Shown here piece by piece: positions 11,105 through 59,800 of a stretch of 64,000 bases of DNA. Each line of letters opens with the position of its first letter. Positions within the stretch are counted from its first letter, which is position 1. Position numbers and translations under genes: made by a program. Source of the DNA: a virus; the IMG/VR virus record IMGVR_UViG_3300044675_001548, positions 32,001 through 96,000 of that record. One strand, given 5' to 3'. The notes below the pieces were generated by a model. That model searched no databases and had not been told where the DNA came from. It saw nothing but the letters and a program-made list of their open reading frames with translations.

Positions 11105-11430
11105 GTAACAAAGATATAAAAAAATCCCGGACTGTAACACCCGGGACTTCTTACCCAGTCCGTTGACCAGGAAACACATATCTGATTACAAAGATACCAG
11201 ATATTTTGGAATTGCAAATGTTTTATATAAGAGAATGAGGTGATATTGTATATAGTAGGTTGTGGTGGCTCCTACATCATGACACCCCGGGCCCACGCTG
11301 GAGCTGGTGTACCCCCGGCAAATCTGTGGAGAATGATTGAAAATCTGACTGTGAAAAAAGATTTTTTTTACACAGGAAAAAGATCTAGTGTTCTACAAAC
11401 AACTTAGTACTTACATTAAAATTAATTACT

Positions 11431-11586
11431 ATGAAATCAATACTTATGTACTTGTTTGCTACCCTAATGCTAGGGAGCTTCTCTGGATTATTAATGAGCT
11501 TTGGTAAAGATATGGTACAGCATATAGGATTTATGTCCTTATTCTGGGGTTGTATGCTTATGCCAATGCTTGGGAGTGCTGATTAG
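11431..11586 (+). CDS. small membrane protein (51 aa, not in ORF track)
   Basis: MKSILMYLFATLMLGSFSGLLMSFGKDMVQHIGFMSLFWGCMLMPMLGSAD; follows the first motif and ends in a terminator hairpin. Confidence 0.6.
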   Translation: MKSILMYLFATLMLGSFSGLLMSFGKDMVQHIGFMSLFWGCMLMPMLGSAD

Positions 11587-11773
11587 CATTCCCTTTTTTT
11601 CTTGTTGTAACAACTTGTTACTTAGTTTAAAAACTAAAATTTGCTAGCCTGTGTAGTGATAGATCAATCACTACCTATTAGAGAAAGAACCCCGCGGTAT
11701 GCTAGAAGGTTTAAGCCCTTGTTTTTTTTCTTCTTAACATCTTTGTACTCATAGTAAATTAAAATTTATTATT

Positions 11774-11842
11774 ATGATTACTTATGTTATAGTAGATGGT
11801 GTGTTAACCATCAAAGAATACTTAAAGAATGCAAATGCATAA
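11774..11842 (+). CDS. 22-aa micropeptide
   Basis: MITYVIVDGVLTIKEYLKNANA; sole ORF between a motif and the next terminator, TATTATG start context. Confidence 0.45.
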   Translation: MITYVIVDGVLTIKEYLKNANA

Positions 11843-11933
11843 TTTTATTTAGAGAGCCAATAGAGCTCTCTTTTTTTTCTTGTTTAAACATCTTTGTACT
11901 TACCATAAATATTAACCTTTAAAAATTTACGTT

Positions 11934-12236
11934 ATGAACAAGAATTTATCTTTTGGCTATTCTCACTTAGGATTCCACACATTAATTAAGTTAAATGCTA
12001 AGATAACTTCAGCTGCTGCTGAGTTACTTACAAAAACTTATGGTGTATGGACCAATGACAATGGCAAGTTTGGTTACAGAATAGAAGGGTGTTTAACCTC
12101 TGATAAAGTATATGCTTTCAGACAATCTTTATCTCTTGCTATCTTGGATTACAAAATAGAACAACTAGTTTCAAAGAAACTAAATATTCTAGGTGTACCA
12201 AGATATGTAGAGGCAGATTTAGAACAAGTATACTAA
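11934..12236 (+). CDS. early hypothetical protein
   Basis: 100-aa ORF within a cassette unit. Confidence 0.7.
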   Translation: MNKNLSFGYSHLGFHTLIKLNAKITSAAAELLTKTYGVWTNDNGKFGYRIEGCLTSDKVYAFRQSLSLAILDYKIEQLVSKKLNILGVPRYVEADLEQVY

Positions 12237-12306
12237 ATCAGAGAGGGGTAACACCCTTTCTTTTTTCCTGTATAACATCTTAATACTTAAATTAAAATTT
12301 AATATT

Positions 12307-12543
12307 ATGAAAAGAGAGAATCTTAAATGGGCTATTGCATCTGTTGCATTAGCCTTTGGTAGTGGATTATTTATAGGCTTTACCTATACATATCAACCAA
12401 GAGTAGAATCTCCAATGGGCAACAAGATAGAGTATTATCTTGAGCTACAAGGAGACAATGCTATTGTTGAGAGTAGATATGGTAGAGTATATAAATGCCA
12501 TCAAGACAGCATTTCAAGTGTATTAAATAAGGACAACCTGTAA
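12307..12543 (+). CDS. early membrane-anchored protein
   Basis: 78 aa with an N-terminal TM helix; cassette unit. Confidence 0.7.
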   Translation: MKRENLKWAIASVALAFGSGLFIGFTYTYQPRVESPMGNKIEYYLELQGDNAIVESRYGRVYKCHQDSISSVLNKDNL

Positions 12544-12737
12544 TGGGTTGTTCTTTTTTTCATCTTGCTCCGCAGCTTAAGCATCTTTATACTTATATGG
12601 ATAATAATTATTATTATTTAAAACAGCTGTTATGGTTTGGCCTCTACATAACATAAGCTGGTACAAAGCCGCCAACTCCTGTGTAAAAGCAGGAGTTATT
12701 ATTTTTCTTGTTAAACATCTTAATACTTATATTAAAT

Positions 12738-12867
12738 TGTTCTTGTCCAAGCAGGTAAACACAATCAGTTATACTGAGCGTGTGGATACTATACCAAGAT
12801 AATGTTATGTGAAGTACAGTAACATATAGAGATTATCAAACTCAAGGATTGCAACCTTGCAAGAACA
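12738..12867 (+). ncRNA. structured RNA motif A (stem-UCCAAGCAGG...CAAGGAUUGCAACCUUG-stem), copy 1
   Basis: TGTTCTTG/CAAGAACA closing stem; same conserved internal motifs as 15152-15274; no good ORF. Confidence 0.6.
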
Positions 12868-13060
12868 CAACAACTAGTGGGGGCAAACTCTGTGATAGAA
12901 CTTTATAAGTTCTTAGGGTGCCAGTTATTACACGTGTGTAATTAGGGCGGGTGAAGCCACAGGGTGACATCTCTACCAAAGTGAGAGAACACCTTAGCGG
13001 GATGCTAGGGTGTTCATTTTTCTTATTAAACATCTTATAACTTAAGTTAAATTAAATACA

Positions 13061-13177
13061 ATGAATACAATATGTTATATCAGAGAGTGCATCAGGAGAA
13101 AAGAGTTTTATCCTGAATGGCTCATAATAAACATAGCAGTAGATGCTATTGTAGTTTATTTAGCATTGAAATATTAG
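13061..13177 (+). CDS. 38-aa small membrane protein (not in ORF track)
   Basis: MNTICYIRECIRRKEFYPEWLIINIAVDAIVVYLALKY after the motif at 13029; ends in a terminator hairpin. Confidence 0.55.
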   Translation: MNTICYIRECIRRKEFYPEWLIINIAVDAIVVYLALKY

Positions 13178-13215
13178 TTCAATGCTTTTTTTTGTAATCT
13201 TTAAATCTATATTAT

Positions 13216-13404
13216 ATGAAAGCTTTTGGATTATTTAACATGTTTGCATGCTATGCATGTACAATCATGAGTGTTACTAGTGTAGTATATCATACTGCAT
13301 TTAGTAGAGATTATGGTACTGCTGCTATACTAGCTTTAGCAGGAGGTGCTATGTTTATCATAGCAAGAACTCTACACAATGAATGGAGACAAGGGAAGCT
13401 TTAA
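13216..13404 (+). CDS. small two-TM membrane protein
   Basis: 62 aa with two hydrophobic helices. Confidence 0.65.
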   Translation: MKAFGLFNMFACYACTIMSVTSVVYHTAFSRDYGTAAILALAGGAMFIIARTLHNEWRQGKL

Positions 13405-13459
13405 GCTTCTCTTTTTTCTTTAACATCTTTTTACTAGTATTAATTTAAAACTATATATT

Positions 13460-13720
13460 ATGGACAAGAAAATATTGTTAGAACTGAGACGTGAGCTATT
13501 AGACAAAGTAAACAGAAATAGCACTAAAGAAGATTTAGTTGCTCTCATAGAAGAAGTTTCAAAGAAGATGCATCAGTTATACATAGCTGAAAAACTAGAT
13601 GAACAAATTGCTACACTAGAAGTAGAAGGTAAAACCTATAGAGACCTATGTGAGCTATCTGATTTAAGAGCTTCTAGAGCACATCTTCAAGAGGCTATGG
13701 AGAGTAGCACAGGGGAGTAA
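13460..13720 (+). CDS. early helical hypothetical protein
   Basis: 86-aa cassette ORF. Confidence 0.7.
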   Translation: MDKKILLELRRELLDKVNRNSTKEDLVALIEEVSKKMHQLYIAEKLDEQIATLEVEGKTYRDLCELSDLRASRAHLQEAMESSTGE

Positions 13721-13815
13721 TCCCCTTTTTTTTCTTTTCTCATTTTGCTACGCAGCTTATGGATACAAACATCTTTTTACTTAAATGGATTATTAACCAT
13801 TTAAACTTTTAATTT

Positions 13816-14136
13816 ATGTTGTTTACAGAAACAAAAAGTATGGCCGATTTCTGTGCTGAAATTGGTAGTGTTAACCAAGATGGGAAGCCTGTATATGTGC
13901 TCCGAACCAACAATGACAAAAACCATAAGAATTATGGTAAACGTCATATTGTGTTCAGAGATGCCACAAATGCCAAGGCTGCCATTGCCTCTAAGCTTTC
14001 AGCAGAAGAGGTGGCTGACCCTACCAAGTTGCAAGTGTCTTGGTTTGAAGACGCTGCATCAGACAGAGAAGGGTACATGGTACACGGCATAGGTGTTGCG
14101 GCATCCTATGACGAAGTTGAGATTGTTATTGGCTAA
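13816..14136 (+). CDS. early hypothetical protein
   Basis: 106-aa cassette ORF with noticeably higher GC3 than its neighbours. Confidence 0.7.
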   Translation: MLFTETKSMADFCAEIGSVNQDGKPVYVLRTNNDKNHKNYGKRHIVFRDATNAKAAIASKLSAEEVADPTKLQVSWFEDAASDREGYMVHGIGVAASYDEVEIVIG

Positions 14137-14645
14137 CAAGCTCAATGGGATAATACAGGTAACGGGAGTGTTGCCTGTATTATTTTTTGTCTTTTCATTT
14201 TGTTATCACAGCTTATGGAAACATCTTTCTACTGAATTGGGTATTTAACCACAATCCAGTAGAAAAAGGCTTTGGCCTTTGGTCATCAGTCTACGGTCAT
14301 ACAGCCTATTCACAGTTAGTGCATACCGGTCATAGGAGGATACCTGAATTATGTGTAGCAAATGTAATTTTGTGGTAAATATTTTTAGGATAAGTGTGCA
14401 TGAAAGTGGGTGTGAGTAATAAACACTCCATCAATATTTGGTCATGACCTTGGTCACAGAATCAGTCAACAGCCTCATACAATATAGTATATATGGCTAT
14501 TACAATAACCATACTACACACACTCTTAGTCTTACACTTATCATTACTACTACTATATATATTAGTATTAGTTAGTGTTAGACAGCAATATCTTCCGGAA
14601 TTAGTTTTCCGCCACTATATATGATTATTAACCTGATTAAAACTT

Positions 14646-14960
14646 ATGATGATGAACTATCAATTAGAACAACTTAAACAATCTCATAGACCAGAGAATA
14701 AAAGGTTTAATGGTAAACTCAATGAAAGAAGTAGCACATATGAAACTAGAAAAAGAACTAGACCATGGGATAACTGTTGGTTTAGTAATAAACCACATAT
14801 TATTAATCTTACTGTAGAAGAAGCAGTAAATAAGTATCCGGATTATATTCTGTGGTGCTATAAAAACTTAAGTATTAAATGGTCTACACATACAGTAAGA
14901 TTAATTGAAAGTAAGGTTAAAAGACCTGTGTACAATACTACTATTGTTACTATGGGTTAA
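14646..14960 (+). CDS. hypothetical protein
   Basis: 104-aa ORF; TVEEAVNKYPDYILWCY segment. Confidence 0.6.
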   Translation: MMMNYQLEQLKQSHRPENKRFNGKLNERSSTYETRKRTRPWDNCWFSNKPHIINLTVEEAVNKYPDYILWCYKNLSIKWSTHTVRLIESKVKRPVYNTTIVTMG

Positions 14961-14967
14961 TTTATAT

Positions 14968-15716
14968 TACCACAAGGTTTCAGGCATAACCTCTCATTCT
15001 GTAAAGCAGAGGTTGACTTGTGGTTTATTTACTCTCATCCAAGCAGGTATTGTGAGGGTACTAAATTGACTATTAGTCCAAAGGATATTATGTTGAAGCA
15101 TAGATTTGCATTAGACAGCTGACTGATTAAACTAATAGTTAATTTATTATTTACTCTCATCCAATTGCAGGAAGGAATCTTTTCCAACCTTAGAGAAAAG
15201 AGATGACAAAACACTTGACAATAATCCTTATGGTGAGAATAGTAGTGTTCAAGGGTTGCAACCTTGTGAGAGTACAAAGAATGCTTCAGCAATTAATATA
15301 TTATTTAATTGGTTATAAATAAAAAAGCATTCTGCAAATGAAAGGCTACTACAGCAATATTTACTTTATAGGAAATAAGTTAATAGTAGCCTGGTTAATG
15401 CACCATTCCTGATTCCCAAGGTCAGGCAGTTGTGATAACACTAATAACCACTCTTGAAACTAGAGATAAAATAGCTTAGACTAAGGGTTATATACACTTT
15501 CAATGTAGTGTAGTAGTATTATTACAACTGAGTGCAGAGGGGCCAAAAATATTGGTGTGAAGAATACTTCAGCACAAAATCTATAAACTACAATCAGAAC
15601 AAGGTTCTCTTATGAGAACTTAACCAGGGAAGGTGTCTGTGTCTAAGTAATTAGGCAGGTTTTTAGATAGTATTCTGTTATGCACCAAGGACCTGCCTTC
15701 CGAAAGGGGGCAGGTA
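14968..15716 (+). ncRNA. cluster of structured non-coding RNA elements upstream of the DUF2828 gene
   Basis: ~750 nt without a credible + strand ORF; at least seven long-range stems, two motif families with compensatory base changes. Confidence 0.7.
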
Positions 15717-15757
15717 CCTTCCCACAATTAATTAGTAACCAATTAAATTTATATATT

Positions 15758-17143
15758 ATGTCTAGATTAGTCAATGCAACAAGACAGTATGATGCTTCAA
15801 CTGCTAATGGAGCTGTCACACATTCAACTAGTTTGAATTACTGTTTGGATTTGTTTTTCTTAGCAGGGGCAAGTAGAAATATGTCAGAGTCTGATATTAT
15901 ACTTGCTTTTGACCGTGCACGTGGTCAGAATAAGAACTTGGCATACAAGATTCTGTTCTGGGCGCGTGATGCAAGAGGTGGTGCAGGTGAGAAGAGATTC
16001 TTCCAAGTGGTTATGGAACATATTAGTAAGATTGATTCTTATGATTATGATCAATTAGCCATACATATACCTGAGTTTGGGTATTGGAAGGATGTATTCA
16101 AGATTGAAAAACCAAATGAGAACAATCTCAATTGGTTGGCTATTCAACTTGAAGAATCACCTAATGCTAACCTCTTAGCTAAATGGTTTCCGAGAAAAGG
16201 TCAGTGGTTTTCAGCCATGCACAAGTATCTTAAACTAACTCCAAAAGAGTTTAGAAAGAAAATTGTGGGTATGACCAAAGTAGTGGAAACTCAAATGTGT
16301 GCCAATGAATGGGATTTGATCAATTATGGTCAAGTGCCTTCAGTTGCTATGAACAAGCATAGACAAGCATTCTTTAACCGTGATGGTAAAAGATATGCAG
16401 AGTATATTGCTGATGTTCAGGCTGGTAAGCAGAAGATCAATGCTTCAGTATTATTTCCTCACCAACTGTATCAAGCAGTTTGCAATGGGGAGTATATTGA
16501 TGCTGTAGAAGCTCAGTGGGATGCTTTGCCTGATTACATGGCTGGTAGCACAGAAAGGATTATTCCTGTATGTGATGTCAGTGGTAGTATGACAGGGCTT
16601 CCTATGGATGTATCTATTTCTTTGGGGATTTATATCTCTGAAAGAAACCAAGGTATATTCAAGGATGCATTCATAACTTTCTCAGAGAGACCTGAGATGA
16701 ATTACTTAAAAGGTAGTTTGTCTGAGAGAATGAGACAGTTGATAAATGCTAGCTGGGGTTATTCTACAGATCTTCAAGCCACATTTGACTTGATTCTTAA
16801 CAGTGCTGTTAGAGAATCATTACCAGAGTCTGAGATGCCTACTAAAATTCTTATCATTAGTGATATGGAATTTAATAGTGCATGTCAAGGTGTTAGCAAC
16901 CTAGATTCTATTAGGGCAAAGTATTCTGATGCAGGATACAAAATGCCTGAAATAGTATTTTGGAATGTTAACGGTAGACTTGGTAATGTTCCTGCATCTA
17001 GTAAAGATTCAGGCATTGGCTTGGTATCAGGCTTCAGTCCTTCAATTTTGAAGGCAGTATTGCAAGGTGAGATTTATTCTCCTGAGCAATTGATGCTTGA
17101 TGCTGTGGACACTGCACGGTATTCCTGTATTGGAGTTGAATAA
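15758..17143 (+). CDS. DUF2828-family protein (TROVE/Ro60-like helical ring plus C-terminal vWA domain)
   Basis: FWARDARGGAGEK, GYWKD, AKWFPRK, VPSVAM, INASVLFPHQ; vWA MIDAS VCDVSGSM and ILIISDMEF; probable start MSRLVN at 15758 (TATTATG). Confidence 0.8.
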   Translation: MSRLVNATRQYDASTANGAVTHSTSLNYCLDLFFLAGASRNMSESDIILAFDRARGQNKNLAYKILFWARDARGGAGEKRFFQVVMEHISKIDSYDYDQLAIHIPEFGYWKDVFKIEKPNENNLNWLAIQLEESPNANLLAKWFPRKGQWFSAMHKYLKLTPKEFRKKIVGMTKVVETQMCANEWDLINYGQVPSVAMNKHRQAFFNRDGKRYAEYIADVQAGKQKINASVLFPHQLYQAVCNGEYIDAVEAQWDALPDYMAGSTERIIPVCDVSGSMTGLPMDVSISLGIYISERNQGIFKDAFITFSERPEMNYLKGSLSERMRQLINASWGYSTDLQATFDLILNSAVRESLPESEMPTKILIISDMEFNSACQGVSNLDSIRAKYSDAGYKMPEIVFWNVNGRLGNVPASSKDSGIGLVSGFSPSILKAVLQGEIYSPEQLMLDAVDTARYSCIGVE

Positions 17144-19722: not shown

Positions 19723-20211
19723 ATGAACACAAGTAAAGTTAAAGTTGTAGCTGATGCTACTACAGGTGCAGTTATTAATTTATCAGCAAATCCTCTTTAT
19801 GGATATGTAAAATTAGAACAAAAAAGATCAATTGTAGATGACAATGGATTCTTGCGTGTGAAACCGGTTAGTACTTTATTACATAGTACTGTTGCTGAGC
19901 TTGAAGCTGCTGGTTTTTACAAAGGACAGGAGTTAACTGGTCAAATTGTGATCCAAGAGCGTCTTACACCATTTAATGAGAAAGCACCACAAAAGGATCT
20001 TAAGATTGCCGGTTCAACAGGTATTGTATGTACCTTAGAAGGACAACCTATTTACCGTAGAACTTTGTATACTGCAGTATCTAATGCAACTGACACATTA
20101 ATCAAACATGATAATGTTGAGCAATTGCGTAATGCTTATGCAGCACAATCTGGAAAATCTAGTGCTATAGAAAATGCACGTCCAGCTGGAGACTTGTCTA
20201 TTGAAGGATAG
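19723..20211 (+). CDS. hypothetical protein (high-expression codon bias)
   Basis: 162 aa followed by a strong terminator at 20231-20260. Confidence 0.7.
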   Translation: MNTSKVKVVADATTGAVINLSANPLYGYVKLEQKRSIVDDNGFLRVKPVSTLLHSTVAELEAAGFYKGQELTGQIVIQERLTPFNEKAPQKDLKIAGSTGIVCTLEGQPIYRRTLYTAVSNATDTLIKHDNVEQLRNAYAAQSGKSSAIENARPAGDLSIEG

Positions 20212-20230
20212 TCTAAGCTATTAGTTAATA

Positions 20231-21198: not shown

Positions 21199-21957
21199 AT
21201 GAGAAGTTATTATGTATATATCCATGTTAGAACTGATATAAATGAAGTTTTTTATGTTGGAATGTCTTTAATTAGTAAAGAGGGATTAATTTATTCAAGA
21301 GCATATAGATCTGCTTTTGAAAAAAGAAAAACAGCTTGGCATAATTATGCAAGAATATGTCCATATAATGTTAAGATTGTAAAAGATAAACTTACTAAAG
21401 AAGAAGCTTTTAAATTAGAAATGAAGCTTATTAAAAAGTATGGTAGAAAAGATCTTAATACTGGAACTTTAATAAATCAGTGTGATGGAGGTGCAGGATT
21501 AAAGAATCCAGGTCCCCAGTTGAAAAAAAAGATACAACATTCCAAAAAGCATTTATCCCATGTTTATAAACAAGCTCAAAAACCATACAGTATTTCAGTA
21601 ACTGCATATGATAAAGACGGAAACTTTGTTAAAACATATAGTAGTATAAATGATGCATGTAAAGATGTAGATTGTTTACATGCTGATATTACAAGAGCTA
21701 TTAATGGTAGGAGACACTTAATTGCAGGTTTTCAATGGAGAAAATATGAAATTAAAGTTGGTATAGGTAAAGTACCTGAAAAGAAAAAAGCTAATAAACA
21801 AGTAGCTCAATATTCACATGAATCTTCTACTCCGTTGAGAATTTGGGAAAGTGCTTCTGAAGCAGCTAGAGAATTAAATATATCTAGAACAGGTATTAAC
21901 AACTGTTTAAGACAAAAGAGCTATACAAGTGCTGGGTATATTTGGAAATTTATTTAA
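21199..21957 (+). CDS. free-standing GIY-YIG-like homing endonuclease with NUMOD1-like DNA-binding repeats
   Basis: YYVYIH...FYVGM, EAFKLEMKLIKKYGR..L.N..DGG; two YxxxG..(K/R)xxxSxxEA-type HTH repeats. Confidence 0.75.
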   Translation: MRSYYVYIHVRTDINEVFYVGMSLISKEGLIYSRAYRSAFEKRKTAWHNYARICPYNVKIVKDKLTKEEAFKLEMKLIKKYGRKDLNTGTLINQCDGGAGLKNPGPQLKKKIQHSKKHLSHVYKQAQKPYSISVTAYDKDGNFVKTYSSINDACKDVDCLHADITRAINGRRHLIAGFQWRKYEIKVGIGKVPEKKKANKQVAQYSHESSTPLRIWESASEAARELNISRTGINNCLRQKSYTSAGYIWKFI

Positions 21958-31675: not shown

Positions 31676-32701
31676 ATGGCAGAATTATTTAATGGTGCAC
31701 AGCCACTACAACCTGTAAGTGAAAGAGATGCTTTATACAAAGCATTAGCAAAAATGGCGGCTAGAAGCCGGGGGGATATAAAATCTTTAAGAAGTGCCTG
31801 GCCCAAATTTAATGATGCCTTTTGTGATGGATTAGAATGGAGAACTATCACCGTAGTTGGTGCTAGACCTGGTACAGGTAAAACTTTATTCATGGAACAA
31901 TTGATTAGTGACATTATTGAGATGAACAGAGATCAAAGATTCCGTGTATTAAAGTTTCAAATGGAAATGGTTGATGAGACCAGTGGTATAAGAAAGTTTA
32001 GTCTGAATACAGGTGCTGATTACAACACCCTGATGAGTAAGGGTAAGAAGATTGATAAAACTCTTTATGCAAAATGCAAGGATTATTATGATAATACAGC
32101 TCACAAGGATATAATAGATGTAATCTATGATGCTTGTACTGTAGATGAAATGTGTGCTACTATTCATTACCAAATGCAAAAGTATTCTAAGTTGACTGTG
32201 GATGCAGATGGTAATCAGAAAAGAGAGTACACTAATATGCTTGTTGCAATAGATCACTCAGCTTTATTTAAAAATGGTAAGGGACAAAGAGATAAATTTG
32301 AAATGTTAGGAGCTTTAGGTGAAGCACTCACCATGTTAAAGAAAAAGTATCCGGTAGCTTTTGTAGTCCTTAGCCAGTTAAATAGAAACATAGATGATCC
32401 AAAGAGAGCAGTGGATGGTGATTATGGTAATTATGTATTGGACTCAGATATTTATGGGTCAGATGCATTATTACAACATGCAGACGTTGTGCTGGGTATA
32501 AACAAACCTTCTCTGAGAAAAATAAGACAGTATGGACCAGACAGATATATCATAAATGATGAGGATATATTAGCTTTTCACTTTTTGAAATCTAGAAATG
32601 GTACCACAAGGATAAGTTTCTTTAAACTTGACAGAGAGGTGATGAGAATAGTAGAGATACCTACTCCAGCATGTGCAACTAAAAAAGTATCAACACAGTA
32701 A
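31676..32701 (+). CDS. DnaB-like replicative helicase (ATPase domain)
   Basis: VVGARPGTGKT, FQMEM, IDH, LSQLNR, DIYGSDALLQHADVV, KSRNG. Confidence 0.88.
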   Translation: MAELFNGAQPLQPVSERDALYKALAKMAARSRGDIKSLRSAWPKFNDAFCDGLEWRTITVVGARPGTGKTLFMEQLISDIIEMNRDQRFRVLKFQMEMVDETSGIRKFSLNTGADYNTLMSKGKKIDKTLYAKCKDYYDNTAHKDIIDVIYDACTVDEMCATIHYQMQKYSKLTVDADGNQKREYTNMLVAIDHSALFKNGKGQRDKFEMLGALGEALTMLKKKYPVAFVVLSQLNRNIDDPKRAVDGDYGNYVLDSDIYGSDALLQHADVVLGINKPSLRKIRQYGPDRYIINDEDILAFHFLKSRNGTTRISFFKLDREVMRIVEIPTPACATKKVSTQ

Positions 32702-48058: not shown

Positions 48059-51000
48059 TTATTTAAGATTTTGGAATTGTTCATCTCTTCTTAATGCCCA
48101 TATAGGAGATAGGTTCTTACCTTTAATACCATAGATGCTTAATATGTGATTCCATAATTTATAGTCCCCTTCTTCTTGCCATGGATATGGTCCAGACTCT
48201 TGACGGTATACAGCCTTCTCACTACCGGTTGCCATGTAACCTAAATCTGCAAGTATCTTTAAGTAAAGACCAATAGTAGGACCAAATGCAATTGAAGTAG
48301 CATCTCCATATTTATACCATTCTTCTAGTCCGCCAACCCATGGTAATGGAATAAAAGATTGGTTCTCTCTTTTGGTTGCAATTAACTGATACAACATATG
48401 ATTACCCATCCATCCAAAGTAACCATAGTCCTCTTCTCTCTTGGCTAGTTTCTGGAATCTATCTTCATCCTGAGGATCCCAACCAAATATAAGAGTTATA
48501 GCCATTGCCATTAATGCAAGTGTCATACCTTCAGTAATCATTTTTCTGAATGCAGCTTTTTCTTCTTTAGTCATTACTGACCAATAAGCACCACCGGTTC
48601 TCAATGTTTTATACATTGCTTGGACACCTGCTATATAATATCCTTTTACAGGTGAACCTGCTTCCCAGTTGTACACATGACCCCAGCGGTTATTCTTAGA
48701 CAAGTCTGTTTGGAATCTGTTTAGGAACATACCAGTAGCAAACTTTTTATAGAAAGTAAATAGCCTATATACAATATACTTCTCTGCTTGTGGAGAATCT
48801 AGTTCATCCATAGCACCATTAAGTCTTTTCTGTACATAATGGATCTTCAACTTGTAGTCATTGAAATTAGTATTTCTAGATACAACAAGTTCTTGTCCTT
48901 CAGTAAGCTTAGCACTAGGTTTGATTTTATTCTTAGCGGCCAGCTCTTCAACAGACATACTATATTTTTTAGCTATAGCCTCTAGAGTTTCATTAGGAGC
49001 TACAGTATGGTCAACATATCTATTACCCCACTCAGGATTAATACCCTGTTTAAGAACTATTTCTTTTTTATCATTAAGTTCCCAAGCATCTATATACTTT
49101 ATTTTCTTTACAGAACCATCTGGTTGGATTTGTTCTATTTCTTTATGATACATCATACCACCCATTACTTGGAAAGCACCTTCAACCTCCATAAGTTTTC
49201 TAGCATCATAAGCCCAGGTAACATCAAACATATCTCTGATAAAACTTCTAGTAGCAGATTTACCATAGTCCTTTTCTACTTTACCTATAACAGGGTCAAA
49301 CATGTCTATCATTTGTAGGTTAAGTGACTTAGCTCCTTTCTTATAGATACCTCCTCCGGTAAAACCTGCAAGCTCAATAGCTGATTGATATGCCCACATT
49401 CTACCAGAAGCAAATGAGATTGGGTTATAGTAAACCCCAGCTGCAGCTTCAATAGAGTTCTGAACTATCATACCAAATCTGTTTTTCACAGCTGATACCA
49501 AGTCAAAAGCAATAAATGATCTACTTGCATTGCTCATTAAGCTATTAGCAAACTTAAGCCACCCTGGATATTCAGATTCCCATGCACTATTTTTCTGGCC
49601 ATAGAATGTCTTTTCTATAAAGTAATCTAGTGCAGCAGCTCTTCTGTTGTCTCCAGCTTTAAGAAAAGATAGTACACCAGTATTCTTAGCTACTTGCTTA
49701 CTAGCTTTATTTAGATCTTTGATAGCATTATCTGGATCATTCATTACAGATCTCAGTGTTTCAGCCTTGGCTTTTTCTTTTATTAGTACTCCCTGTTTGT
49801 TAAGTGAGTAGTTATACATGAACATAGCACTTAATACATCTGTAGAAACTTCATTAAGTTCCATTTTGTATAAACCGTCTACTGGAATTCTGGCTATAGG
49901 TTGTCCCTCTAAGTCAGTTGATACTAATAATGTATTAGGATTATAGTTTATACCAAAGTTTTGGTAGTCATCTTTTCTTTTTGCAAATGTAGATTTAACA
50001 GCTTCCCATGTAGCACTACCTTTTTCTTTAACATCAGACACAGCTTTTCCAGACTTAAGTAATTCTAAGTTACTAGCCTTTCTTCTTCTTGGTAAGTCAA
50101 GATAGAGTTTAGCTGAACCTGGTCTATTCTCCTGCATCTTTAACATGTACTCAGTTACTTTATCCAGTAAGTTTTTCATAGCAGGATTAGTAATAGCTTG
50201 AGCATATTCTTTATCCATGTACTTATCATCATAGGCACTGTTTGGATCACCTGGTTTGTATTCTTTAGGAAGGTAGTTACCATCATTATCTATAATAGTA
50301 CCAATATATTTTTTCTTAGCCTCAGCATCAAACGGTACAGTAAAGTACTCTTCTTTGACTCTTTGGTAAGAATACTTAGGTCCCGGTACTCCATTGATAA
50401 TTAATGGTTGTTTAGTAACAGGATGTACTAGAGTAGTTTTCTTGTAATGATTTTCATCTACAGGTTTTACTGAAGTCCACATTCTAGTTCTAAACCACTT
50501 GTCTTCTTTTTGTTTGGTACTATTGTTCCAGACTTTTTTCTTGTAGTGGTTATTCTCAAACCATTCTGCAAACTCTGGATTAAGTTCCATTGCAGTATAT
50601 AAATCTTCAGAGTTTATCCAGTCATCTGCATTCTCTAAAGTAATATGAGGAACCTCTGTATCACCCAGCATATTATTAAATGCTATATAGTAGTATTCAG
50701 TAGGTGTCTTTTGTGTCAAGCCTCTTAAATCTGCAAACAGTTCTTTTAGCTTTTTGAACTCAGATTCAGACAGACCTAACTCATTTCTTCTTGCTGTAAG
50801 TTCATCATAATCAGTCTGTTCTGTAACTGATAAGTCATAACCTGCTGCAAGTCTTTCTTCATAAGCTTTGAGTTTATCAGCTTCTTCAGCAAGTAAACCA
50901 GACTTGGTATCTATTTTACTTTCTAAATCAGTTATCTTTTCCTCAATGTCCTTCATAAGTTTAAACTGCTCAGGTTTATACTCAAGAGCATTAGTCTGAC

Positions 51001-53890
51001 CGTTTCTATCAGTCACAAGATTAGATAATGCAAATCTCTGACGGTATAGATCAGCTAACTCAGTAGCAATAGCAGACTTCTTACTTTTGCTAGTAAGGGT
51101 CTTTATCTCAGTCATTATAGTATCTCTACTTTCATAGTAGCTTGGAGTATAGGCTACTCTAAAGTTTCTTTCCTCAAACTTTTCAAGAGCTTTTTGAAAC
51201 TCTTCAGGATTAGATTCCATTGTAATTTTTCTAGCAGCTAGGTCCTGAACAAAAGAATCTAAATCTGTTTGTACTTTATCTTCATTAGGAATATACTCAT
51301 AGAACTTACTAGACCTTCTTCTATATTCTAGTCTTACTAAAACTCTTTGGAGCTCTTCTCCAGTTTTAGGTTGACCCTTGCTATCATATATCTGGAATAA
51401 CTCATTGTATCTTTTCTGAGCTTCATCTGCTTCAGTAAAGGTATAGATGTCATCCATAGTAGTAAAGTCCCGGCTTTTGTATACTATCATCTCACCAAGT
51501 GCTTTCTGTCTTTCAAGATAAGACTCAGTAGCTATAGTAGCAGGGATTGTTTCTACTTGTTTTGTAAATGGATTAGTGATTTTATTTTCTTGTTTCCAAA
51601 TATCCTGCACAGCATAATACTCAGGAACTTTTTCCTGATGCATATATTTCTTTTCCCAGTCCCACTTTCTTGCAAGAATTTCTTTCATTGCAGTCTTGTC
51701 TCCTTTTTCTTGAGCCTGTTGGAATTCATATTCAAATCTATCTCTGTCAGCTCTCCATCCGTTACCAAATTTACTTTTGATTTTGTAGACTTCAAACTCT
51801 TCATACTCACCTTTATCATTTGTACTACCTACTTTATCCACAGATAGTAAAGCTTGTCCTGATCTCTCAATGTTTGTAGGATTTAGACCTGCAGCTTGCA
51901 TTAGTGGTATAAGTGTCTCAAGCATATCAGTCTCTTCTCTAAGGCTAACTTGCTCAGCATCAGATAGTTTTGTTTTCATAAATCTTACAAAACTACCTAG
52001 CGGATCATCAATGGACATGTATGGGTTAAGAAGTGATTCCATAATACCTATGTCTTCTGTATTACCTTCTATCCAATTGTTTAATGAATCTCTGGTAAGT
52101 CTTTTTTGATAGTACTCACCTACTTCTCTAACTAATTCTGCAGCACGGGCTGAATTGATTCCAGCACCCATGTCTTTAACAGTAACAGTCTTACCATCAG
52201 GATTAGATATAATCCTTTCTACAAGTTCATCTATCTGAGCCTGTGGTATTTTATCCTGTTTAAGATAAGTATTGATTCTTTCAGTTAATCTTTTTTCAAG
52301 TTCATCTTGCATAAATGCAGTATTGTCTTCCATGAACTGAAGAGCATATTCCTTTTGAAGTTCTTTTACTTTATCTCTGGCAACAGAAACTATATCAGAT
52401 ATATCAGATACTTCTTTTACAAACTCATTGGTTCTTGAGAGACCAATAGTTTTTTTGATAGCCTTTAAGAATTTATCTTGTCTAGATAAGAAGTCATTAA
52501 AGTATAAGATTTTTGATATACCATCTTCAGTTAAGTAACTGTCATTGTTCTCCATCTCATTTAGGATGTTCTCTATCTTAGTAGTAAAGACTTTTACCTG
52601 GGATAAACTTTCAACTAATGCAGTAGCTCTCACTCTGAATTCCTCTTGTTGAGCTTGTAATGCTTCTGCCACATCTTCAACAGGAACATCTTTTACATCA
52701 ACATTTTGGTATCTAGCTAGGAAACCTTTAAGATTACTAAGTATAGCAAGACCACCTTCACCAACAAGTTCTTTCTTAAGTCTACCTGAGTCTTTCAATA
52801 CTTGAATCTGGTACTTAGCCTCAACATATGTTTGGTTGATGGCATTCTGTAGATTTTTAGTGCTCACATTTTGGAGAGCATCTACAAGGTCATCATACTC
52901 ATTCTTCATCTCAGCATAGTCTGTCTGATCAAACTTTAAGTTAGCTATCTTAATGTCCTCAAACAGTAACATGTCTGTAAGTTGATCTATGGTTGTATCT
53001 GACTTAAGATCTTTTACAGAAATTACTTTGGATATTTTTCTGAAGAGTTCTTTTATAGCATATACAAGCATGCTGATAAAGTTATTGAACTCCGGATCCT
53101 GTTGCTGAAGCTTATTGATTTTATTCTCAGCATCTCTCTCAAGAGATCTAACAAGAACTTCTTCCATAAATCTATCAGACTCAAACTGTAGATTAGGATA
53201 TAGAGCCTTCACTTGCTCAATAATACTTTGGCCGGTAGCTGTAAGCTTGGCTTTGTTATACAAGTTATTAAATAACTTATTGTTTTGGATTGATATACCT
53301 TTAATAAAAGGGTGGGCAAACTCATGGATCATTGTACCCATGTTAGCTTTACCTTTAACTAGATATACCATATTACCATAGTAAAACCCTGGTTGATTTT
53401 TATATGGAGTGCTTGTTCCAGATAATGTCTCAATTGCTTCCTCTTCTGTTATGTACTGATATGGTACATCTAAAGTAAGCATCATTTTTTCTGCAAGAGC
53501 ATTAAGAACTTTCTCTGCTCTCTCCTGACTTACATCCTCTTTATTAAACTCAAATGGAACTATGTCTGGCTTAGATCTTTCTGGTAAATAATCTGGTCTA
53601 AGATATGCATTCTCTTTATAGAAGATACCTTTGAAAGCATCTATCTGATGAAACATTTCTTTGTTAGGTAAAGCTCTGGTTCCACCAAACTCTGGAGTAA
53701 ACAACCTACCTTCAATACCATATTTCTCATTAGCATACTTTGACCACTTAGAGTTGTATTCCAGAAATTTTTTGAAGTCCTGGATATTAAGGTACTTATC
53801 TACAATACCTAGTGATCTCATGTTAGCTTTAGTAGAGGCTTCAGAGGACTTAAATCTTAAATTCTTGTTTGTGCATGCAGACCTTGCCAT
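48059..53890 (-). CDS. large virion/ejection protein with zincin-like HExxH motif and LysM domain
   Basis: HEFAH at 53312-53326; LysM HTVAPNETLEAIAKKYSMSVEELAAKNKI...LTEGQELVV at ~48880-49020; sits next to the vRNAP as in crAss-like phages. Confidence 0.8.
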   Translation of the reverse strand: MARSACTNKNLRFKSSEASTKANMRSLGIVDKYLNIQDFKKFLEYNSKWSKYANEKYGIEGRLFTPEFGGTRALPNKEMFHQIDAFKGIFYKENAYLRPDYLPERSKPDIVPFEFNKEDVSQERAEKVLNALAEKMMLTLDVPYQYITEEEAIETLSGTSTPYKNQPGFYYGNMVYLVKGKANMGTMIHEFAHPFIKGISIQNNKLFNNLYNKAKLTATGQSIIEQVKALYPNLQFESDRFMEEVLVRSLERDAENKINKLQQQDPEFNNFISMLVYAIKELFRKISKVISVKDLKSDTTIDQLTDMLLFEDIKIANLKFDQTDYAEMKNEYDDLVDALQNVSTKNLQNAINQTYVEAKYQIQVLKDSGRLKKELVGEGGLAILSNLKGFLARYQNVDVKDVPVEDVAEALQAQQEEFRVRATALVESLSQVKVFTTKIENILNEMENNDSYLTEDGISKILYFNDFLSRQDKFLKAIKKTIGLSRTNEFVKEVSDISDIVSVARDKVKELQKEYALQFMEDNTAFMQDELEKRLTERINTYLKQDKIPQAQIDELVERIISNPDGKTVTVKDMGAGINSARAAELVREVGEYYQKRLTRDSLNNWIEGNTEDIGIMESLLNPYMSIDDPLGSFVRFMKTKLSDAEQVSLREETDMLETLIPLMQAAGLNPTNIERSGQALLSVDKVGSTNDKGEYEEFEVYKIKSKFGNGWRADRDRFEYEFQQAQEKGDKTAMKEILARKWDWEKKYMHQEKVPEYYAVQDIWKQENKITNPFTKQVETIPATIATESYLERQKALGEMIVYKSRDFTTMDDIYTFTEADEAQKRYNELFQIYDSKGQPKTGEELQRVLVRLEYRRRSSKFYEYIPNEDKVQTDLDSFVQDLAARKITMESNPEEFQKALEKFEERNFRVAYTPSYYESRDTIMTEIKTLTSKSKKSAIATELADLYRQRFALSNLVTDRNGQTNALEYKPEQFKLMKDIEEKITDLESKIDTKSGLLAEEADKLKAYEERLAAGYDLSVTEQTDYDELTARRNELGLSESEFKKLKELFADLRGLTQKTPTEYYYIAFNNMLGDTEVPHITLENADDWINSEDLYTAMELNPEFAEWFENNHYKKKVWNNSTKQKEDKWFRTRMWTSVKPVDENHYKKTTLVHPVTKQPLIINGVPGPKYSYQRVKEEYFTVPFDAEAKKKYIGTIIDNDGNYLPKEYKPGDPNSAYDDKYMDKEYAQAITNPAMKNLLDKVTEYMLKMQENRPGSAKLYLDLPRRRKASNLELLKSGKAVSDVKEKGSATWEAVKSTFAKRKDDYQNFGINYNPNTLLVSTDLEGQPIARIPVDGLYKMELNEVSTDVLSAMFMYNYSLNKQGVLIKEKAKAETLRSVMNDPDNAIKDLNKASKQVAKNTGVLSFLKAGDNRRAAALDYFIEKTFYGQKNSAWESEYPGWLKFANSLMSNASRSFIAFDLVSAVKNRFGMIVQNSIEAAAGVYYNPISFASGRMWAYQSAIELAGFTGGGIYKKGAKSLNLQMIDMFDPVIGKVEKDYGKSATRSFIRDMFDVTWAYDARKLMEVEGAFQVMGGMMYHKEIEQIQPDGSVKKIKYIDAWELNDKKEIVLKQGINPEWGNRYVDHTVAPNETLEAIAKKYSMSVEELAAKNKIKPSAKLTEGQELVVSRNTNFNDYKLKIHYVQKRLNGAMDELDSPQAEKYIVYRLFTFYKKFATGMFLNRFQTDLSKNNRWGHVYNWEAGSPVKGYYIAGVQAMYKTLRTGGAYWSVMTKEEKAAFRKMITEGMTLALMAMAITLIFGWDPQDEDRFQKLAKREEDYGYFGWMGNHMLYQLIATKRENQSFIPLPWVGGLEEWYKYGDATSIAFGPTIGLYLKILADLGYMATGSEKAVYRQESGPYPWQEEGDYKLWNHILSIYGIKGKNLSPIWALRRDEQFQNLK

Positions 53891-53899
53891 ATCAATTAA

Positions 53900-56800
53900 T
53901 TATTCTCCTAAAAATGGATTAGTACAGTTATTATCTAGATCATCAGAGTCATCTTCTTCAGTATCTTTTCTCTCAGTAAAGTTAGTTAAATTTCCAGTGT
54001 TGTCAAGTTCTATTCTTGGTATACTACCAGTATGATATATAGTAAACTTAGCACCTATCTCTTGTAAGTAATCTATGAACTGACTGTCTACTCCCGGCAT
54101 ATCTCCTACTACAAACTCACCTCCATTATTAAATGCTATTTCTATTTGATTTTTAGTTTCAGAACTAAGAGGTTTATTTTTTAATTCACCATTTCTTGCT
54201 AGCATTACCACTTTATTACCATCTACTCCAGTTTCTCTATATGCAACAACTGTTGGTGCATTATCAAAATAATCTAATGTATTATTGGTTTTATCCTTTT
54301 CATATATAGATTTGGCTGAAAAATTACTAGATGTTTGTTTATTTCTATCAAGTACTTCACCAATAAATCCATCAGCAATCTGTCTCATTGCTTTATCTTT
54401 ACCATCACCTTGAGGAGTACCTTTACCTACATTTTCAAATCCACCTTTATATCCTTGAAAGCCAGTACTTACAGGAGCTGTAGGTTGAGTAGATACAAAC
54501 TGTTTAAATCCTTCTATATCTTGTTTACCAGTTTGTTCTACATATTGAGAGTATAGTTGTTGAGCTTGCTGTTTTTGTTGTGGAGTTATAGGTGCATACA
54601 CAGTCATAATGTTTATTCCTGCGTTTTTTAAAGAAAAATATCTATGATAACCATCATTTAATATACCATTAGAGTCAACAATTCCAGGTACTTTTTGCCC
54701 TTCTTTTTTTAAACTTTCAGTGTATTTATTATTTTCTTCTTCACTTCTTTGTCCAAAATTACCTAATTTGATTTCAGATAAAGGTAATGTTTTTTTAACC
54801 CACCAAAAACCATTATTAGAATAGTTTTCTATAGTGCTTTCATCTTTGCTACCAAATACTTCATCAACCACATTATCTAATCTAATAAACCCAGCAGCTT
54901 CATATACAGCATTAGCTAATTCAGGATTAGAATCAAATAGTTCTGGTACACCTTCTTTAACTTCTCCTACTGGTTGTACAGTAGGTTGAGTAGGTTCTTC
55001 TCCAAATAAATTTAACTGAGTACCTGGTGTAGGTCCTTCTTCATCTGTTTCACTTTGTTCTTTTACAAGTTCATTGTAAATAAGTATCTGAGCAATAGCA
55101 AAGTTTGCAGTCTTTCTCTCTTTTATTTTAGTTTTTTCATTGTATTGTGGATACTTCTTTAAAAAGTCTTTTAAGAACTCTCTTGCACCATCTGCAGTTT
55201 CTTTTGTACTTTCAATTGGTTCATTAATTTTTGATAATTCATCAAAGAATTCTATTATCTGGTCTTCATCATAAGATGATTGTATAAACCCTGGTGCAAC
55301 CTCATTTGCAAGTTTAAGTGCTTCAGGAGATAATCTTCTGTTACCAGCTTCACTAAGTTTTTCAGCATCAAGCATGTATGACTTGAATGGAGTTTTAACT
55401 TGTGTAAGTCTATCAAATATAATTTGGAAAGCATTGTTATTCATGTAGTTATCTGAGAACACTTTAGAAGCATACTTCATTATGGTGTTATACTTATCTA
55501 CAGGAAGAGCTGAATTAAATCCATATTTAGATTTACCTACACCATGCTGGTATACCATCATTTGTGGGAATAAACCAAAGACATCACTAATAACTTTATT
55601 TGATATTGGGTCTTCTACTTTCTTAATATTAGGATCAGCAAGTTGTTTTATATTCTGTACATATATCTGAGCCTCTGATCCAGAGATAATTTTTCTGTCA
55701 TTAAGAGTTAACATATTATCACCAGTCTTACTTGGTACTCTAGATATTTGTTCTAGTATTGGGAACTGTGCTTTTAGCTGAGGAAAATTCTTAATGATAT
55801 TCATAATTTTATCAGTATATGAATGTTCATTATCCTTCATTATTGCAGTTCTGTTGAATGTATTCATAAGAGCTTTATCTGCAAGATACATCTCTAAAGA
55901 TGCTGCAGGTATTGTATCTTTATAAATATCTCTTAAGTATTCTCTCTCTATGACATACTTTATAAAACTTGTTTTGTCTGGGAATAAAGCATCATCCTCT
56001 TTAAATGTCTTCAGACCTCTCTTAAAGTAAGAGTTATCTACCGCATTATTCTTACCAAGGTATAAGTTGTTATTATAGTCAGATTCAATTAAGTTATAGT
56101 TAACAGATATACCTGTTATTGTTCCTTCTGCATCTTTATTTATAATTACATCTTTCTCCTGGGAGTTATTACTAGTAACTTTATGACCTCTATAATCATC
56201 AGGTCTATTACTTATTTTACCATTGGAATCTATAATATTGGACATATAGTTCTGGTAAATAAAGTTGATCATAGCATTCTTATATTCATCTATGAACCTA
56301 GAAGCACCATCTTTACCTTGACCAAAGTTAGCTTTGATAAGATCAGCATTTAATCTGATCTTAGACAATATAAAATCATTAAGTAATGTATTGTCTCTTA
56401 ACTTAAACAATGGGTTAAGCATAGACATGATGATTTCCTTGTCAAACAATGAACTAAGAACTGAATCAGTCTGTAGTGATGTCATTAAGGTTGGATCTAC
56501 CTTAGAGTTATTAGCTAACAAATCAATGTTTACATCTCTATACAATATCTCTTGTGGGCTCTTAAATGTTTGAGTATCCGGTTTTGCATTTGACTTAGCA
56601 GTAGAAATACCTTTAAGTTGTTTTTCTATTTCCAAGTAATGTAAGAACATAGAGATAGCAAGGTTGGAGTTTTCTTGACCTGGTTCTTTTACTAGTTTTT
56701 CCATGTCAGCCGAACTAAATACTCCATTCTTAAGAACATTTGGTTTGTTCACATAATTACTTACAGACTTAGCATACGTTGTACTTGTTATCTCAGGTTT

Positions 56801-59800
56801 AGTATAAAGTATTTTTGTCTGTGGACTACCTGAGATTTTCTCAAGTCTTTTTATTAAAGATACTTCAAGGTTTCCGTTTCTGACCTCTTCTATAAATACC
56901 TCAACAGACATCCTGTTAACTTTTGGTTTAAAATCAAAAGGTCCTTGAGTAACAACAAACATATCACCTTTGTGCTCCTTAACAACATTTCTAAGCAATT
57001 GAGAAATTACTCCATTGACAACCATCTCAGCTGAGTTATACTTAACAAAGTTTTGATTTTTTGGAGCATCTCCAGTGAACTCACCATAAGCACTCTTTAA
57101 TCTTTTTTGATTATCTACATACTGTCTTACTAAAGGGTTGGAAACAAAGAAGATAGCATCTCTTACCGGAACCCCTGCTTTAAATAAATAGAACAGTGTA
57201 CTAGCTACTTCCATGTTACCTTGAATAAAGAATATCCATGGGTTTTTCTCAACGTCCACAGTACCATTAATAGCCTGTGAAAATAATTCAGCTACACTAT
57301 TAATACCATCAGCATCATAGATTTTTGAAAGGGATATTCTACCATCATCTGTTTTATTATGAGGTAGGAATAATCTCATTGGAACTTTTGGTTTATCTTT
57401 AAGTTCTACATCTCTTCCAAGTTTTTTACTAAACTTAGTTAAGTAATAATCTTTTGGCATTGCCGCACCAATAGAATCAAAGACTGGACTGATAGCATTT
57501 TCATTAGCTGCAATACCAAGTACATCTTTACCTTCCATGTTTACACCATGCTTATGTACATTGTACAGTGGATGAAGTGTAATAGATGGAGTAATCTTTT
57601 TTCCATCTTTATCACCACCTACAAATCTATCATAGTCACTTACTATGTTCTCAAGCTCTTCAGAAATGTCCTGTAAGATATATGTATCATTTGGTCTCAC
57701 AAGGTTTACGTAATTATCTGGTAATTCAAGTACCCCTTTAATTGACTCAAGTATCTCATTCTCTGCAGCTTTCTTCTGTGCTTTAATCTGGCCAGCAAAA
57801 CTTTTATTAGTCTTTTCTCTCTCAGCATTTATCTTATTGATAAAGTCTTTGGTGTTTTCTTTACTAGTAACATATGTACCATCAGAAGCTATGTGTGGAA
57901 AGAATGTAGTTAACTTATCAACGTCAAAGTCACCACCAGACTTAGCAACAAGTTCAGATGGAACAAAGATCATGTTATCAGCACTAGGATCCATGAAATG
58001 ATAAACCTCCATAAACTCCATAGAGTTAAGACCTTGAACTGGAATCCTAACAGCACTTAATGTAATTGACTTTCTGTTATCATCAGTATTAAGCCACTCT
58101 TCATCTTTGATAAGTTCATTAAGTCTTTGGATAGTACCTATCTTTTCACCCTTCCATTCTTTATTAAGTAAGTTATTGAACTCACCTTGGATACCAATGG
58201 AAACTTTCATGGCATTTGTATTACCATCTTTTCCGGGCTCATAGAAAGGAAGTGTATTACTACCTAGTAGTTTTTCTCTCTCAGCTTCAGTACCTTCAGT
58301 AAACTTAACACCACCAGACCACATACCTCTAGTAAGTGTACTTGATACTTGAACCAGTGCTTCACCATAAAGCTTTTGCTTAACAAATCTTTTCTCTACT
58401 ATTGACATTATAGTCTTCTCAATTGTCTGAGCATCAAGATGTATTGACAAGTCATTTTTTAAAGTACCATCTTCATTAAGACCAATAGCCTCAACTAAAT
58501 GTTCTGGCATATCTTTTCTTCTTAGCTCTCTTTGGATTAATCTAAGTAAGTTTTCAATATTACCTTTGTAACTATCACCTTCTTTCTTAAAGTTAATCTC
58601 ATCAAGAAGCTCAAGCTTTAATAGATTAGTGTAGTTATCTACTGCAGCTTTATATCTATTAGCAGCAGACTCATTTTTAGTATTGATAAGTTTACCGCTT
58701 TCATATAGACCATTAAGAAGTAGTTTTCTTAACTGAGTTGCAAATACAACTTTACCTTTAGAATAATCTGGAACACTAGCTGATTCTTTAAGATACTCTA
58801 CATATACAGTATTAGGAGTAAGAGTCAGTTTGTCCTTTATAATCTTTTGCTCTTTGTCAGCAAAAATGTTATCTGGTTTCCCGTCAGCAGTAACACCACC
58901 AACTTTAGATCCACTGGCAAATGTTGCATACTGAATATTGTTTCTCAACATTTCATGATGTAGTGTCTCTAAGTCAGATCCTTTAATTACAGATGGTATT
59001 AAAGGCATAAGAGCAAACTTATGCATTGCTGTTACAGGTAACACTGTACCAGCTAAGTTACCATAGTTCTGCAACTTAAATACAGGGAAGAAATTTACAA
59101 CATCTGCTGCTGTAATCTCTTGACGAGCTACTATTTTTTTATAAAGTGCTTCTTGCTGATCACTCCACTTATTCATACCCTTCTTAAGTGTACGGTATGC
59201 ATCAATTGTAATATAACCTTGACCATCAGCCTCAGTCATGTTCAAGTACTTATCAGCTTCAATCTTAACTCTCTTCTCTACTTCTTCTGCAGCATTAGGT
59301 TTACCAGCATATCTTTTTTCATAATCCTCTCTGATAGCTTTTTCAATAATTGGTTTGTAAATACTATCTCTATCTGCATCCTGCATAATAGCTGTATTAA
59401 CAGTACCATTGTAAGTAAACTTAACATAGTCTGAGCTACCTACAGTTTTAGCATAAGCATTTCTATCCCATGTAAATCCAGTTTCTTTACTGTTGACATC
59501 ATTTATGAAATCTCTAAATGCTTTGTCAGTTCTGATTTTTGGTCCACTGGAAATAGCTCCTGAAGTTCTTTTATGAAACTCCTCTTTCTTATGATTGAAC
59601 TGTGCAATGTCTCCAAAAATAACTTGAGATATTTCAAAGTTATGAATCCAAGCATTATACATATAAGCTTTAGCAAGTATTCTTTCTTTTTCAGAGTTAG
59701 TTAGATTAGGTACATTTAATCTATCCATGACAGTTTTATCTATATACTTAGCTTTTTGTAAGTATTCATAGACTTCTTCTGTACTATCATTAAAGTATTT

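Follow-up and report, generated by a model that had tools for sequence, protein, structure and literature searches.

We report a family of small structured RNA elements encoded directly upstream of a DUF2828 gene, the product of which is predicted to fold like Ro60, in a virus with a 118,228-bp record (IMG/VR IMGVR_UViG_3300044675_001548; 99% complete by CheckV). Positions 32,001 to 96,000 of this record were analysed as one stretch of 64,000 nt, herein the window, and are numbered from its first letter. Three repeats in the window are genuine small structured RNA elements that share one conserved handle and occur well above chance. As the handles lie directly upstream of the gene for the Ro60-folding protein, they are probably its partner RNAs; the explanation that we favour, and consider probable, is thus that they are Y-RNA-like partner RNAs, or binding sites, of the Ro60-like protein, with the array that contains them probably also feeding back on synthesis of that protein.

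Three Copies of One RNA Handle Precede the DUF2828 Gene

The array, its three handle copies, and the adjoining gene are as follows:

14961-15757, + strand: non-coding array, poor in open reading frames (ORFs) and densely structured, between a 104-aa ORF (upstream) and the DUF2828 gene (ORF list, conserved blocks, covarying helices in relatives)
15278-15333, + strand: handle RNA copy 1; helix AGAATGCT 15278-15285 / AGCATTCT 15326-15333, then T and CAGCA 15287-15291; AA before, GC after
15343-15392, + strand: handle RNA copy 2; helix AGGCTACT 15343-15350 / AGTAGCCT 15385-15392, then A and CAGCA 15352-15356; GG after
15554-15686, + strand: handle RNA copy 3 with its outer helix; handle AGAATACT 15561-15568 / AGTATTCT 15669-15676, then T and CAGCA 15570-15574 (sequence, fold, pair counts on 14 relatives)
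15758-17143, + strand: gene for the 461-aa Ro60-like protein, Pfam DUF2828 plus DUF7788, phrog_850 'RNA-binding protein' (Pfam, PHROGs, metal ion-dependent adhesion site [MIDAS], AlphaFold2 model, Foldseek)

An earlier note on this DNA had described three copies of a stem with an unpaired CAGCA, and most of that description can be read directly in the sequence: the copies lie at these coordinates with perfect 8-bp arms and CAGCA one base past the 5′ arm, a G-C to A-T exchange distinguishes copies 1 and 3, and CAGCA is constant while the enclosed insert varies, the interiors from CAGCA(A/C) to the 3′ arm being 33, 27, and 93 nt in copies 1, 2, and 3, respectively. Only the helix length had to be amended. 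Eight bp holds in the window but not as a general rule, given that the innermost (eighth) pair is dispensable, with T-T at this position in the related loci L005, L006, L010, and L015; the helix is therefore better given as 7 bp followed by 1-3 unpaired nt. All three copies share a strand with the Ro60-like gene and precede it by 82-480 nt, with AAG preceding or beginning the helix in each and 3′ ends that read CUGC, CUGG, and CUGU (copies 1, 2, and 3). Fold z-scores versus shuffles are -2.46 for copy 1 and -2.38 for copy 2, ranging from -2.4 to -2.6 over the three copies.

As a chance control, we used a strict pattern made up of an AG-initiated stem of 7-9 bp, 1-3 nt, CAGCA, and the complementary arm with a G directly after it. 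The array has 3 such loci within 400 nt and the rest of the window has 1 (38204), versus a mean of 1.17 per 128 kb in dinucleotide shuffles scanned on both strands.

The Handle Is Conserved, Covaries, and Travels with DUF2828 Genes

Relatives were obtained through a protein search of viral contigs, giving 35 loci (designated by L-numbers) in which the proteins are 32-96% identical to the DUF2828 protein of the window. The covariance-model search proposed in the earlier note was run on these loci and on whole phage records with a model (R1) whose seeds were restricted to 13 short copies from the window and its close clade, and it recovered the same element in distant phages, with every match at E < 0.04 on the gene strand and nearly all of them no more than ~1.1 kb from the DUF2828 gene. 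Over 176 kb, including the distant loci, R1 returned 31 matches, all on the + (gene) strand and 30 of them in DUF2828 loci or the window array, with E-values down to 5e-8 in loci having proteins 55-56% identical; copies 1 and 2, both of which were model seeds, scored 66.1 and 68.1 bits. Across four whole phage records (630 kb), every R1 match with E < 0.05 was situated within ~1.1 kb of the DUF2828 gene, and the R1 search of the entire 118-kb viral genome returned no further short copies. The handle accompanies the DUF2828 gene across phages whose proteins are only 35-56% identical.

Covariation in homologues, which the same note had set beforehand as a test, is present. For 51 aligned matches, (i) 97.4% of cells are paired, versus 33-46% with the partner slid, (ii) 7 of 8 handle pairs display changes on both sides, and (iii) the covariation score is 0.544 versus 0.185 in shuffles, a value reached by 0 of 500 shuffles. 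A plain script further found CAGCA with wholly different stems beside the gene in L016-L028 (arms, e.g., GCTTCTA, GATTAGT, AATTACT, GATACTT, and AGATGAT). The arms covary while the spacing between them runs from ~25 to 190 nt, and G.U pairs are present within them. In distant clades, the consensus reads 5′-(A/U)AG, 5-7 further paired bases, 1-3 free bases, CAGCA(A/C), cargo, and a complementary arm ending in CU, then GU, with G-U following the helix in 14 of 15 copies.

Certain relatives associate the handle with tRNA-like sequence. In L022, a handle RNA (2862-2978) encloses a tRNA-like part with T-arm-like and D-arm-like segments, and positions 2901-2961 give a sub-threshold match to Rfam YrlA (27.3 bits); large tRNA arrays surround the DUF2828 gene itself in L017 and L025. 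The three copies of the window show no tRNA or YrlA similarity indicative of such a module. A Pistol ribozyme match above its gathering score (42.8 versus 34.5 bits) was also encountered at 2116-2184 of L014, ~800 nt upstream of the DUF2828 gene; the window contains no such match.

The Adjoining Gene Encodes a Protein Predicted to Fold Like Ro60

The 461-aa protein matches Pfam DUF2828 (PF11443) and DUF7788 (PF25043) as well as PHROG 850. In its AlphaFold2 model, built with 15 homologues (predicted local distance difference test 84.7, predicted template modelling [TM] score 0.80), the protein folds like Ro60, with a helical-repeat ring plus a von Willebrand factor A (vWA) domain bearing a MIDAS site. 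The top 12 listed Foldseek matches against the PDB are all full-length Ro60/TROVE structures (TM 0.32-0.60, mostly 0.5-0.6), with vWA-only proteins ranking below; among those listed are Ro60 of the Thermus phage phiLo (9kop, E 1e-8; 9l5y), Xenopus Ro60 with Y RNA (1yvp), human Ro60, and Deinococcus Rsr. The MIDAS motif D-x-S-x-S (D273-S275-S277) is invariant. Identity to solved Ro60 proteins is only 11-16%, and a sequence search of the PDB with the protein gave no match, leaving the fold search alone as informative. More than 6000 sequences belong to the DUF2828/DUF7788 family at E 0.001 or better, and its range extends to fungi, plants, and algae.

Predicted Pairing of the Copy 3 and Copy 1 Cargoes with the Leader of the DUF2828 Gene

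Five segments on the + strand are relevant here:

15627-15635, + strand: GGGAAGGUG, pseudoknot 5′ strand in the copy 3 cargo (pair counts, 14 relatives)
15692-15714, + strand: leader hairpin CCUGCCUUC / GGGGGCAGG with loop CGAAA (99.2% paired; GC to AU exchange in 4 sequences)
15715-15723, + strand: UACCUUCCC, pseudoknot 3′ strand (pair counts; inverted repeat I6)
15303-15323, + strand: copy 1 cargo segment complementary to the DUF2828 translation start region, the longest among the array's inverted repeats (I1, 21 nt, 86%)
15728-15748, + strand: leader segment, partner of the copy 1 cargo; its core UAACCAAUUAAAU (15736-48) lies 10-22 nt ahead of the ATG and is invariant in the clade

Copy 3 is extended by an outer helix (GGUGUG 15554-59 with UGCACC 15681-86), and its 93-nt cargo contains hairpins at 15603-20 and 15641-56, in the former of which 6 of 7 pairs are changed on both sides in 14 relatives. 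Over the same relatives, the pseudoknot that joins this cargo to the leader (GGGAAGGUG / UACCUUCCC) has 99.2% of its cells paired and 3 pairs changed on both sides, e.g., GGGGAGG/CCUCCCC in L014.

For the copy 1 cargo and the start region, exact complementarity of 12-14 nt is present in most close relatives, a length that no more than 3 of 300 shuffles attained in each case; in L007 it is only 9 nt, which is at chance level, and the start-region core is absent from distant clades. The helix is 90% paired versus 17-52% when slid, and one flanking pair runs A-U / G.U / G-C across relatives. Genome-wide, the start region is the only target of the copy 1 cargo that is not of low complexity; for the cargoes of copies 2 and 3, antisense targets elsewhere in the genome were limited to chance-level matches. 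In two relatives (L003, 2557-2570; L005, 2630-2642), the first handle's cargo uses a different pairing register, which covers the start codon itself (CAUAUAUAUAAAUU versus AAUUUAUAUAUAUG). Two other pairings within the array, I5 and I13, were dropped as they are not conserved in relatives.

On the + strand of the array (14961-15757), zero terminator-like sites and zero early promoter-like motifs were detected between the handle copies and the DUF2828 gene. Owing to this, to the pseudoknot, and to the start-region complementarity, the sequence suggests that the array probably also controls translation of the messenger for the Ro60-like protein itself, i.e., a form of feedback. Scans for sigma-70 promoters, for terminators, and for the Bacteroidota -7 motif performed at chance level and were uninformative. 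Early promoter-like sequences are represented upstream by eleven copies of AACAWCTTnnTAC (≤1 mismatch) ahead of small ORFs (11398-14232, + strand), the nearest copy upstream of the array being at 14220 and zero being within it.

The ATGCACCA Sequence and Further Structure within the Array

A short sequence is found after two of the copies:

15398-15405, + strand: ATGCACCA after copy 2, then a covarying hairpin (15408-26) and a helix (15427-33/15524-30)
15680-15687, + strand: ATGCACCA after copy 3; contributes UGCACC as 3′ strand of the outer helix

This sequence had been likened to a CCA end, a notion that we have rejected as a general feature of the element. It occurs 4 times in the window versus 1.68 expected and is kept in the close clade only, with distant relatives having CUGU followed by unrelated sequence. 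Being clade-limited, a helix strand beside copy 3, and followed by a hairpin of a further structured domain after copy 2, ATGCACCA is therefore not read as a tRNA-like 3′ end, though processing may occur there.

The further domain spans 15399-15536, between copies 2 and 3. The loop of its hairpin (15408-26) is a conserved UUCCCAAGG, while its helix (CAGUUGU 15427-33 / ACAACUG 15524-30) encloses a variable insert of ~90 nt; both hairpin and helix covary in relatives. UGCAC (15399-403) could also pair with GUGCA (15532-36), with both strands never varying. Within the insert, positions 15471-15484 are exactly complementary over 14 nt to positions 20209-20222, at the end of ORF 19723-20211 (~0.07 expected by chance). 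Ahead of copy 1, a second motif (TTTACTCTCATCCAA...GCAGG) is repeated at 15030-15060 and 15150-15274 and corresponds to the 'family A' of the earlier note; its closing helix ACTCTCA/TGAGAGT abuts copy 1, and the 261-nt stretch has a fold z-score of -2.3.

Relationship to Y RNAs and to Dictyostelid Class I RNAs

Y RNAs are bound by Ro60 via the helix formed by the two ends of the RNA. In the mechanism that we propose, a handle comprises a helix of 7-8 bp by which the 5′ and 3′ ends are closed (5′-AAG...CUG-3′), an unpaired CAGCA(A/C) just past the 5′ arm, and an interior that is free to vary. The three handles would be transcribed together with the Ro60-like gene, directly upstream of it, and may then be released as separate RNAs. 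The protein would most likely bind the handle, just as the terminal helix of a Y RNA is bound by Ro60, while the cargo would set the task of each RNA. With the copy 3 cargo forming a pseudoknot with the leader and the copy 1 cargo being complementary to the start region, the array would also feed back on protein synthesis. 

Known loci provide precedent for this arrangement. Y RNA genes adjoin Ro60 genes in >250 bacteria and phages (Chen et al. 2014, PMC4201824), and in phage phiLo, Ro60 binds two Y-like RNAs (Yrl1/Yrl2) encoded directly upstream of its own gene (PMC12135203). As the arrangement in our window is the same in outline, the helix and CAGCA are by analogy read as a putative binding handle and the interior as cargo. 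Features in common with Ro60 (Rsr) and its Y RNAs, including YrlA/YrlB (RF02553) and those of phiLo, are (i) a ring-plus-vWA protein with a MIDAS, (ii) small RNAs beside the gene on the same strand, with ends paired in a terminal helix by a conserved unpaired motif, and (iii) a variable second module, which is tRNA-like in some phage relatives. In contrast, the protein of the window is DUF2828/DUF7788 and not TROVE by sequence, the phage motif is CAGCA after a 7-8 bp helix instead of a bulged Ro60-binding helix, this genome has no RtcB, and the cargo pairs with the leader of the gene itself. The earlier proposal of a protein-binding RNA handle is supported by the conserved covarying helix, the invariant CAGCA, the variable cargo, the co-travel with the DUF2828 gene, and the predicted Ro60 fold, with binding being likely by analogy; its CCA-like end is not supported. 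Rfam 15 at gathering thresholds contains no family for the handle element, and the literature searched contained no paper on RNA partners of DUF2828, PF11443, DUF7788, or Ro60-like proteins. Against the published knowledge searched, the handle is of a kind that was encountered in no paper or RNA catalogue, while the overall arrangement is akin to the Ro60-Y RNA ribonucleoprotein.

The only relevant sub-threshold Rfam match concerns the Class I RNAs of social amoebae (RF01414), with copy 1 scoring 33.3 bits (E 5e-4; gathering score 41.5) and two copies in L017 scoring 28.9 and 27.3 bits, also below gathering; copies 2 and 3 were unreported at E up to 10. Class I RNAs are 42-65 nt in length, start with AAG, end with CUGU, and possess a 6-bp terminal helix kept in structure but not in sequence (Kjellin et al. 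2021, PMC7919456). An 11-nt motif, CCUUACAGCAA, follows the 5′ arm ahead of a variable interior, and these RNAs have been found only in Dictyostelia (PMC7919456). The likeness extends to a length of ~50-60 nt, the AAG start and CUGU end, a short helix with structure and not sequence kept, a conserved unpaired motif that immediately follows the 5′ arm and closes with CAGCAA, and an A/U-rich interior that varies. The differences are that the phage handle has only the CAGCA(A/C) half of CCUUACAGCAA, with 1-3 nt in place of CCUUA (4-5 nt); that phage copies 1 and 2 have CUGC and CUGG as their ends; that the only named Class I partner is Rnp1A, an RRM protein; and that Class I genes are dispersed with their own promoter element (DUSE), whereas the handle originates from a 118-kb virus record and not a dictyostelid genome.

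It is quite unlikely, in our estimation, that phage handle RNAs and Dictyostelium Class I RNAs form one RNA class, be it by descent or through the same kind of Ro60-like partner. We keep this probability low because a dictyostelid DUF2828 protein could not be established: none of the 150 best representatives from a Pilobolus query was dictyostelid-like in composition, a result that does not amount to absence. Ten of these 150 were looked up, and the six with an organism name were plant, fungal, algal, and aphelid. A near-length search for DUF2828 proteins retrieved close phage relatives only, while a longer-protein search retrieved fungal members; known carriers of the family are fungi, poppy, a green alga, and an aphelid.

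Weighing the Explanations

Several points weigh against handles that serve as partner RNAs of a Ro60-like protein. Gene adjacency alone is no proof of physical partnership. At the level of the protein, DUF2828 and DUF7788 are the only Pfam matches, with TROVE (PF05731) not matched at E 0.01 or better. At that of the RNA, neither Rfam Y_RNA (RF00019) nor YrlA (RF02553) is matched at gathering score in the window or at E up to 10 in 14300-15900, and loci L023, L024, and L029 gave no R1 match or only a weak one. The 51-match alignment was fitted to the structure of the model, which favours pairing; the script result is independent of that alignment. Lastly, the helix between the copy 1 cargo and the start region rests on mostly invariant, A/U-rich sequence plus one covarying pair, and support for it is modest because most of the helix never varies.

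Other explanations must be considered alongside these points. The handles might never be released, functioning purely in cis as folding units of a single long, structured 5′ leader through which the DUF2828 messenger is controlled in its stability or translation, with the protein acting as a sensor or not. Such a leader would be in keeping with the lack of promoter- or terminator-like signals between the copies and the gene, with the covarying pseudoknot that ties copy 3 to the leader, and with the complementarity of the copy 1 cargo to the start region. However, other phages carry the handle downstream of the gene or ~1 kb off between tRNA genes (L026/L027, L025, L017) and it therefore cannot act as a leader there; moreover, if the protein were the sensor, this scenario would overlap with the explanation that we favour. 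We regard a purely cis-acting leader as unlikely.

Very unlikely, in turn, is that the helix and CAGCA constitute a processing or stabilising signal for host RNases or tRNA enzymes, with the linkage to DUF2828 reflecting shared operon history. The tRNA acceptor stem measures 7 bp, the same as the terminal helix of the handle, and relatives have handles inside tRNA arrays, some of which enclose tRNA-like parts. Yet the virus described here, without tRNA genes, keeps three handles right at its DUF2828 gene, the CAGCA and CUGU ends are fixed even though the hosts of the relatives are probably diverse, and in the four whole phage records all matches with E < 0.05 are beside the DUF2828 gene. That the repeats arose by chance, or are DNA-level elements devoid of RNA function (protein-binding inverted repeats or recombination sites), is hardly credible: the region is A/T-rich, and loose stem-plus-CAGCA patterns do arise by chance elsewhere in the window, but the strict pattern greatly exceeds its frequency in shuffles, significant matches all have CAGCA in one orientation with respect to the gene, the arms covary across widely varying spacing, and they contain G.U pairs.

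Genomic Setting

The DUF2828 gene is neighboured by small uncharacterised ORFs, a homing endonuclease, a ParB-like protein, and a helicase. The homing endonuclease gene (21199-21957; NUMOD1 / I-HmuI-like) is situated amid early and replication genes. The phage genome contains no tRNA genes and, with respect to an RNA-repair context, encodes no RtcB. Farther along the window, the - strand carries two giant ORFs, 1943 and 3337 aa in length and placed end to end (48059-63913).

Implications

Ro60 and its Y RNAs form a classic RNA-surveillance particle and human autoantigen, and understanding of its bacterial and phage counterparts is at an early stage. The locus described herein is a compact test case, with three handles, one gene, no tRNA genes or RtcB to confound, and two cargo-messenger pairings that predict feedback. 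The resemblance to Class I RNAs provides a concrete hypothesis on how those RNAs work, a question open since 2004. Were it true, Class I RNAs, thought to be unique to social amoebae, would be Y-RNA-like partners of a DUF2828-type protein, and the handle would define an ancient ribonucleoprotein common to phages, giant viruses, bacteria, and eukaryotes; in a further step, the cargo would be a guide that steers the protein to chosen RNAs, as hinted by the complementarity of copy 1 to its own messenger. Ultimately, a partner-RNA handle would give a second, sequence-unrelated branch of Ro60-shaped proteins (DUF2828/DUF7788) a testable function.
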